Shown here: positions 21,989-23,243 of the stretch, in pieces | How positions within the stretch are numbered: the stretch's first letter is position 1 | How the letters are laid out: each line of letters starts with the position of its first letter | DNA from: Escherichia coli | GTDB lineage: Bacteria; Pseudomonadota; Gammaproteobacteria; Enterobacterales; Enterobacteriaceae | Length of the DNA stretch: 64,000 bases | Direction: 5' to 3' (one strand) | Assembly (NCBI RefSeq): GCF_003334785.1 | Contig: NZ_QOWV01000001.1 | Made by a program: the position numbers and the translations under genes | Notes under the pieces: generated by a model | Told to the model about the DNA's origin: nothing | The model's input: only the letters and a program-made list of their open reading frames with translations | Databases searched by the model: none

Positions 21989-22009
21989 GCGAATTTTAGT
22001 TCACATAGA

Positions 22010-22032
22010 CCCTGCTTCGGCGGGGTTTTTTT
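22010..22032 (+). terminator. rho-independent terminator after narI
   Basis: CCCTGC-ttcg-GCGGGG hairpin followed by T7. Confidence 0.8.
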
Positions 22033-22051
22033 ATGGGCACGGTGCGGGGTG

Positions 22052-22085
22052 AGTTGTCGGATGCGCTTCGCTTATCCGACCTACA
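22052..22085. repeat. REP-like palindromic element
   Basis: gtcggatgcgcttcgcttatccgacctac resembles the REP consensus GCCGGATGCGGCGTAAACGCCTTATCCGGCCTAC. Confidence 0.5.
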
Positions 22086-22170
22086 GGGGAGGATATTGTA
22101 GGCCCGGTAAACGTGGTGCCATCGGGCAAAATTAGCTCGGAGTAACAGGTTTTGATTATTTAAGGAAGCG

Positions 22171-22704
22171 ATGGTGGTGGGGGAAGGATTACTCAGCGCT
22201 GCGCGCTTCGCCCTTCGGGTCGTTGCCTGCGGCAACGCTCTCTCGCTGGCGCTCAAGTCGAACCTTGGTCGAAGCTTCTCATCCTTCCCCGCTTGGGCAG
22301 AATATTTGATTGCGGATTCGTTTGAGAATTCCGGGGCTTTTGAAAGTGATGGTGGTGGGGGAAGGATTACTCAGCGCTGCGCGCTTCGCCCTTCGGGTCG
22401 TTGCCTGCGGCAACGCTCTCTCGCTGGCGCTCAAGTCGAACCTTGGTCGAAGCTTCTCATCCTTCCCCGCTTGGGCAGAATATTTGATTGCGGATTCGTT
22501 TGAGAATTCCGGGGCTTTTGAAAGTGATGGTGGTGGGGGAAGGATTACTCAGCGCTGCGCGCTTCGCCCTTCGGGTCGTTGCCTGCGGCAACGCTCTCTC
22601 GCTGGCGCTCGAGTCGAACCTTGGTCGAAGCTTCTCATCCTTCCCCGCATGGGCAGAATATTTAATTGCGGATTCGTTGGGAAGTTCAGGGACTTTTGAA
22701 AGTG
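22171..22704. repeat. three tandem 178-bp repeats (rtT region) downstream of tyrV; each starts with a 19-nt copy of the tRNA-Tyr 3' end
   Basis: periodicity of 178 bp with unit starts at 22171, 22349 and 22527; each begins tggtggtgggggaaggatt. Confidence 0.9.
22528..22698 (-). ncRNA. rttR: rtT RNA, processed from the tyrT-tyrV primary transcript
   Basis: position of the repeat proximal to tyrV; boundaries are recalled, not derived from the sequence. Confidence 0.45.
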
Positions 22705-22705
22705 A

Positions 22706-22790
22706 TGGTGGTGGGGGAAGGATTCGAACCTTCGAAGTCGATGACGGCAGATTTACAGTCTGCTCCCTTTGGCCGCTCGGGAACCCCACC
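22706..22790 (-). tRNA. tyrV: tRNA-Tyr (GUA), second gene of the tyrT operon
   Basis: reverse complement matches tRNA-Tyr (GGTGGGGTTCCCGAGCGGCCAAAGGGAGCAGACTGTAAATCTGCC...CCACCA), 85 nt including CCA. Confidence 0.95.
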
Positions 22791-22823
22791 AGGGGTAATT
22801 CAAATTTTGAGGTAATGCTTGAG

Positions 22824-22945
22824 ATGGTGGTGGGGGAAGGATTATTCGTCGCTTCGCTCCTCACCCTTCGGGCCGTTGCCTGTGGCAACGTTCTCTCGCT
22901 TTCGCTCGAATCGAACCTTAGTCGAAGGTTCTCACCCTTCCCCGA
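22824..22945. repeat. diverged partial copy of the 178-bp rtT repeat in the tyrT-tyrV spacer
   Basis: about 80 percent similar to the downstream repeats by eye. Confidence 0.7.
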
Positions 22946-22999
22946 TGAGTGCAAACTTTCACAATCTCACCGAAGTTACCACATCGCTGTGGTGAATTA

Positions 23000-23084
23000 T
23001 GGTGGTGGGGGAAGGATTCGAACCTTCGAAGTCGATGACGGCAGATTTACAGTCTGCTCCCTTTGGCCGCTCGGGAACCCCACC
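23000..23084 (-). tRNA. tyrT: tRNA-Tyr (GUA), first gene of the tyrT operon
   Basis: identical 85-nt tRNA-Tyr sequence on the minus strand. Confidence 0.95.
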
Positions 23085-23124
23085 ACGGGGTAATGCTTTT
23101 TACTGGCCTGCTCCCTTATCGGGA

Positions 23125-23165
23125 AGCGGGACGCATCATATCAAATGACGCGCCGCTGTAAAGTG
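23125..23165 (-). promoter_or_regulatory. tyrT promoter (-35 TTTACA, -10 TATGAT, GC-rich discriminator)
   Basis: minus strand reads TTTACAgcggcgcgtcatttgaTATGATgcgccccgcttcccg about 40 nt upstream of the mature tRNA 5' end. Confidence 0.8.
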
Positions 23166-23243
23166 TTACGTTGAGAAAAATGAACTGGTTGCGTAATTTT
23201 CATCCGTAACGGATTAAAGGTAACCAGTTATTTTTGCTGGCGA

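Follow-up and report, generated by a model that had tools for sequence, protein, structure and literature searches.

The tyrT–tyrV operon of Escherichia coli raises a simple question: why does a tRNA operon carry repeated DNA in which every unit closes with a copied tRNA 3' end, and is what matters the DNA itself, a small peptide or an RNA? The locus was analysed in a window of 64,000 nucleotides, where it lies between narI and purU. The original prediction, that this is the tRNA-Tyr operon with the 178-bp rtT/tpr repeats, agrees with Rfam, with RefSeq (which labels two tRNA-Tyr genes and four copies of "RtT sRNA, processed from tyrT transcript") and with the annotation of K-12 MG1655, which lists tyrT, tyrV, rttR (171 nt, b4425), tpr (b1229, "protamine-like protein") and an antisense ORF, ychS (b1228). 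The locus is an already known, ordinary textbook feature and a true positive for a genome scan. Knowledge of it dates from 1978–1991: it was sequenced in the late 1970s and rtT RNA was described in 1991; there is also an Rfam family, RefSeq annotation and published covariation. The 1.4-kb region was matched in all 5426 complete E. coli genomes of the collection. In genomes such as NZ_CP015085 (O25b:H4), only the tyrT-purU side of the query was matched (29% coverage), and the locus appears rearranged or interrupted.

Our answer, to which we give a probability of about 0.9, is that RtT is a selected structured RNA from the tyrT transcript, that tpr is a by-product of it, and that the array has been shaped by unequal crossing-over and conversion. 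The features on which the argument draws are as follows.

23135..23162, minus strand: tyrT promoter, with -35 TTTACA (23162-23157), 16-bp spacer, TG and -10 TATGAT (23140-23135); 10/12 in a consensus scan
23128..23134, minus strand: G+C-rich discriminator GCGTCCC (GCGCCCC in K-12 and the other compared genomes)
23000..23084, minus strand: tyrT, tRNA-Tyr(GUA), 85 nt (ARAGORN; Rfam tRNA, 53.4 bits; K-12 annotation)
22825..22956, minus strand: diverged RtT copy in the tyrT-tyrV spacer (Rfam RF00391, 132.9 bits; RefSeq 'RtT sRNA'), with its tail at 22825-22843
22706..22790, minus strand: tyrV, tRNA-Tyr(GUA), 85 nt (ARAGORN)
22166..22724, minus strand: tandem array, 3.14 units of 178 bp (Tandem Repeats Finder, repeat search, script)
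22547-22724, 22369-22546, 22191-22368 and 22166-22190, minus strand: units 1, 2 and 3 of the array and a 25-bp partial unit
22528..22698, minus strand: equivalent of rttR, the 171-nt rtT RNA in K-12 (K-12 annotation; identical sequence)
22528..22659, minus strand: RtT copy 1, Rfam core (RF00391, 137.5 bits)
22350..22481, minus strand: RtT copy 2, identical to copy 3 (Rfam RF00391)
22172..22303, minus strand: RtT copy 3 (Rfam RF00391)
23000-23018, 22825-22843, 22706-22724, 22528-22546, 22350-22368 and 22172-22190, minus strand: sites of the 19-nt tRNA 3' end AATCCTTCCCCCACCACCA
22549..22638, minus strand: tpr ORF, 29 codons plus stop, its 29-aa translation identical to K-12 b1229
22171-22503, 22310-22699 and 22488-23093, plus strand: long antisense ORFs spanning RtT repeats and even tRNA genes
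22007..22028, plus strand: terminator-like hairpin followed by a T run, 3' of narI, part of the converging narGHJI operon

The two tRNA-Tyr genes are identical across 85/85 nt, as had been claimed for them, and ARAGORN together with sequence comparison places both on the minus strand. Each has a cloverleaf, a GUA anticodon, a long variable arm and an encoded CCA (both end ACCA). Upstream of them the consensus scan found near-consensus hexamers followed by GCGTCCC, so that the predicted promoter with a GC-rich discriminator is present. As judged from its sequence, it matches the architecture of stringently controlled stable-RNA promoters, which combine near-consensus hexamers with a G+C-rich discriminator. 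The -35/-10 region (23135..23162) is identical to that of K-12, but one discriminator base is private to the window: position 23131 is T on the minus strand (A on the plus strand), giving GCGTCCC instead of GCGCCCC. A 66-nt promoter query was one base off (98.5%) in all 5405 matching records, which come from 5403 complete E. coli genomes, and base-by-base comparison showed C at 23131 in K-12 MG1655, NZ_CP085074 and NZ_CP043187. A sequencing error could explain this base, or it could be a genuine variant of a classic element of stringent control. NZ_CP043187, a K-12-like O16:H48 genome from mouse gut, has four base differences from the window in 10000-34999 (25 kb); besides 23131 these are single-base differences at 10418, 21920 and 34926, the rest being identical.

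Tandem Repeats Finder reported, at 22166-22724, a period of 178, 3.1 copies, 97% matches, 0 indels and a score of 1053, and the repeat search gave start-to-start distances of 178 and 178. The register of three exact-period repeats, each with the 19-nt tRNA tail, is the one first described; in transcript direction, unit 1 begins within tyrV. AATCCTTCCCCCACCACCA occurs six times, on the minus strand only, and closes both tRNA genes, the spacer element and each of the three tandem units. The fourth, diverged copy in the tyrT-tyrV spacer was recovered by repeat search (22819-23021, 66% ungapped identity) as well as by Rfam. All four copies match RF00391 (RtT) over model positions 1-130 of 130, with 132.9 to 137.5 bits against a gathering score of 45. 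The repeats in the predicted span of 21996-23170 are thus real, but its lower limit is not: the array ends at 22166, and 21996 was arrived at because one mechanical ORF through the repeats, a spurious frame of 86 aa, ends there. Beyond the array, the tyrT transcription unit is bounded by the hairpin at 22007..22028.

The K-12 operon and the window are alike in genes, gene order, flanks (narI and purU) and the 3.14 x 178-bp array. Not one base separates the window from MG1655 in repeat 1 (with tpr), in either tRNA gene or in the spacer copy. The two differ in repeat 2 (22369-22546), which is identical to repeat 3 in the window and in NZ_CP043187, the window repeat 2 having been homogenised to repeat 3, while MG1655 differs at 10 sites. 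On sequence comparison, the identity of repeats 2 and 3 suggests that a conversion or an unequal exchange took place recently in the K-12 lineage. Repeat number was compared across strains, as the original prediction had proposed, and was found to vary from one to three copies downstream of tyrV, with the spacer copy present or absent:

Window and K-12: spacer RtT present, three copies downstream of tyrV
O157:H7 SS17 and SEV4: spacer RtT present, two copies downstream of tyrV
S115 and Res13 O169:H41: spacer RtT absent (34-nt spacer), three copies downstream of tyrV
AW1.7: spacer RtT absent, two copies downstream of tyrV
2020S05-013: spacer RtT absent, one copy downstream of tyrV

The suggested origin of the repeats by unequal recombination fits both this variation among strains and the identity of repeats 2 and 3 relative to MG1655. 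Unequal crossing-over from unit to unit, together with gene conversion, would expand, contract and homogenise the array, and would keep the tail copies in step with the tRNA-Tyr gene of the same genome. It illustrates clearly how copy number changes and units are homogenised inside one species.

To see how far RtT extends beyond E. coli, one genome per species was scanned for AAGGRTGAGAANCTTCGA, a single conserved 17-mer motif, which gave at least 120 loci. An nhmmer profile built from the window copies found 189 RtT in 90 of these at least 120 loci, in at least about 28 genera; because the search was seeded with a single motif and at least 120 loci were listed, this taxonomic range is a lower bound. 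Taxa with RtT among the matches listed include Enterobacteriaceae, Erwiniaceae, Serratia, Acerihabitans and Xenorhabdus. Thirty of the 120 listed loci (in Thermodesulfobacteriota, archaea, Lachnospiraceae and others) had no RtT by nhmmer and were set aside as chance 17-mer matches. At the 90 RtT loci among the matches listed, tRNA-Tyr(GTA) genes were the only tRNA genes found, each locus carries one to six RtT with periods of 166 to 188 bp, and nearly all RtT are co-oriented with the Tyr gene and follow it, or the preceding RtT, at a distance of about 45 nt.

The tail follows the tRNA gene. For 106 of 117 copies, the 18-nt tail has the same sequence as the 3' end of the local tRNA-Tyr, also where this is a species-specific variant such as CTCCCGCC, and the tail evolves in concert with the tRNA-Tyr gene. 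Conservation and structural constraint of RtT extend across Enterobacterales, and at the loci among the matches listed RtT is linked to tRNA-Tyr only. Seven loci, from Kosakonia, Citrobacter, Leclercia and Trabulsiella, also have one RtT 27 to 39 nt upstream of their first tRNA-Tyr gene, which may occupy an operon leader position or be the leftover of a lost tRNA gene. Another locus (NZ_SZPQ01000002.1), labelled Martelella alba and placed by NCBI in Alphaproteobacteria, has an Enterobacterales-type tRNA-Tyr and RtT, and its label may be wrong.

The structural constraint is evident from covariation. Aligned with MAFFT without fitting to structure, 134 distinct RtT copies from at least about 28 genera share a core of about 130 nt that is conserved, behind a 5' linker that varies; conservation does not extend to the linkers between units. 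A 31-pair structure, comprising the RNAalifold consensus and one hairpin added by eye, was evaluated on these 134 copies. Standard pairs make up 94.8% of cells, and 18 of the 31 pairs have compensatory changes, that is, changes on both sides. Compensatory cells numbered 262, compared with 48 ± 6 in shuffles (0/500 as high) and at most 31 with slid partners. The closing stem, formed between the 5' arm GGGGAAGGA and the tail derived from the tRNA, covaries with that tail: at pair 21/137, 116 copies have GC and 17 have AU, and those with AU belong to species with the matching change in the tRNA-Tyr acceptor stem. Tandem G.A mismatches are kept in two helices. Helix 37-40/52-55 had no two-sided change in the 134 copies.

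Support for the structure rests on covariation, because the 171-nt rtT equivalent, folded as a single sequence, reaches -51 kcal/mol, no better than its shuffles (z = -1.06). The independent alignment recovers the helices of Rfam RF00391 and the tandem-G.A helix, with no difference of substance. As the extra tandem G.A helix and the covariation of RtT were described earlier by Rivas (PMC8250186), the helix and covariation results are not new. The 5' arm of RtT is a 19/22 inverted copy of the T-arm and acceptor region of the tRNA (0/1000 shuffles as high). A same-orientation similarity between tRNA-Tyr and the RtT body (CTTCG..AAGGTTCGAATC against CTTCGACCAAGGTTCGACTC) was weak (32/1000 shuffles as high) and was rejected.

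These observations suggest how the operon may work. From the single strong promoter with its G+C-rich discriminator, one transcript would be made, containing a leader, tyrT, the spacer RtT, tyrV and three RtT. Each RtT unit is predicted to be a structured RNA: its roughly 130 nt would fold into several hairpins enclosed by a long stem, within which GGGGAAGGA would pair with the sequence copied from the T-stem and acceptor 3' strand of tRNA-Tyr, leaving a single-stranded ...CACCACCA 3' tail. Because the units end in a tRNA 3' end, the enzymes of tRNA 3' maturation could trim RtT to a defined CCA end, and trimming would free a stable rtT RNA (171 nt in K-12). In K-12, tyrV is at 1287244-1287328 and rttR at 1287066-1287236; rttR begins 8 nt past the CCA of tyrV and its 3' end lies exactly 178 nt from that CCA, on the CCA of the tail copy. 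From this annotation, and from second-hand accounts of Bosl and Kersten (1991), we infer that RtT units are released by tRNA-processing enzymes. Bosl and Kersten are reported to have described a 171-nt rtT RNA and to have proposed for it a role in modulating the stringent response, the only function so far suggested for it in the literature. The processing predicted for RtT is like that of spacer RNAs of tRNA operons of the 3'ETS-leuZ type, stable RNAs freed by tRNA-processing enzymes; unlike 3'ETS-leuZ, RtT is repeated and carries a tRNA tail. We know of no sRNA-sponge activity, Hfq binding or target for RtT. RtT accounted for very few reads in one RNA-seq data set (0.0008 to 0.0009% of effective reads; PMC13010647).

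If it is the RNA that is selected, the tpr frame of 29 codons would be a by-product of G+C-rich hairpins. The opposite reading, that the repeats matter because the first of them encodes Tpr, an arginine-rich 'protamine-like' peptide of 29 residues, has in its favour an intact, ATG-started ORF at 22549-22638 (minus strand) identical to K-12 b1229, and a protamine-like product that was reportedly found by Altman et al. in 1981 (Cell 26:299). An in-frame ATG upstream of the tpr start would yield 33 aa. However, the tpr frame does not recur in every unit: of the four copies in the window, only repeat 1 has the frame intact, repeats 2 and 3 having TGA at codon 10 and the spacer copy a GTG start and TAA at codon 6. 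The arginine-rich frame originally quoted as a possible tpr is another, shifted frame on the same strand, part of the mechanical ORFs through the repeats, and that assignment is mistaken. The 29-codon frame is not intact in five of nine sampled E. coli (O157:H7 SS17, AW1.7, Res13 O169:H41, SEV4 and E69), and of 81 distinct RtT copies in other Enterobacterales in which the start motif is retained, 54 have a stop at codon 6; the remaining frames at the tpr position are open, but 1- to 2-nt indels in hairpin loops shift them, producing unrelated peptides. In addition, the tpr ATG abuts AAGG with no spaced Shine-Dalgarno and falls within the closing stem, PGAP makes no tpr call, and in an NCBIfam scan neither Tpr nor the ORFs of 86, 165 and (antisense) 110 aa matched any family (a match to GlgA, E = 0.2, was due to chance). 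The frame is rich in arginine because the hairpins are CGN-rich. We conclude that tpr is not a conserved gene, and we consider a coding role for the repeats very improbable, although the first repeat may give a peptide specific to E. coli. Long ORFs through the repeats do exist on both strands, as predicted (86, 165, 110, 129 and 201 aa); the antisense ORFs, one of which is ychS (b1228) in K-12, look like repeat artefacts, and tpr (b1229) and ychS look like annotation relics of a structured-RNA repeat. A pseudouridine preprint names tpr only as a predicted target of antisense tRNA-Tyr RNA.

It is just as hard to credit that the repeats are passive, functionless DNA that arose as a side effect of unequal recombination at the 3' end of the tRNA. 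Copy number is indeed free to vary from one to three after tyrV, and many strains do without the spacer copy; a classical supF strain lost one tRNA gene together with RtT (PMC12584984), and in an overexpression screen RttR had no listed effect on biofilm, motility or fimbriae (PMC4606813). Yet at least one copy is retained in every locus examined, in about 28 genera among the matches listed, the core of about 130 nt is conserved when the linkers are not, and the 18 compensatory pairs, far beyond both controls, show selection on pairing. A third alternative is that RtT is not a trans-acting RNA but a module that acts only in cis, in the processing or termination of the tRNA-Tyr transcript: it might direct 3' maturation of the tRNA that precedes it or contain the rho-dependent terminator. 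A purely cis role is possible because the 5' arm, with its 19/22 inverted copy, could pair with the 3' end of the upstream tRNA as well as with its own tail, and Rfam classes RtT as 'Cis-reg'. Termination of tyrT transcription by rho was reportedly mapped inside the repeats by Kupper et al. in 1978 and Rossi et al. in 1981. Against it, tandem copies distant from any tRNA keep the same structure and a discrete 171-nt RNA is annotated in K-12; we judge an exclusively cis function unlikely, albeit the most serious of these alternatives. Starting from the structured RNA that we favour, one further and decidedly speculative step would make RtT a trans-acting decoy instead of a processing by-product, the closing stem and free ...CACCACCA end mimicking the acceptor end of uncharged tRNA-Tyr. 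Such a decoy would titrate a reader of tRNA 3' ends (for example, a 3' exonuclease, the CCA-adding enzyme, TyrRS or ribosomal RelA), its dose would depend on copy number, tying tyrT transcription to the stringent response, and the annotated tpr and ychS genes would be artefacts. We regard this as improbable.

Elsewhere in the window, Rfam identified three identical rdlD antitoxin RNAs (4785-4850, 5320-5385 and 5855-5920, plus strand) with a period of 535 bp, which are the known ldr/rdl type I toxin-antitoxin triplet. At about 29888-30784 (minus strand), between tdk and adhE, lies a frameshifted IS4-family transposase pseudogene according to the annotation of the closest genome. A tryptophan operon leader (Rfam Trp_leader, 93 bits) was found at 57231-57324 on the minus strand.
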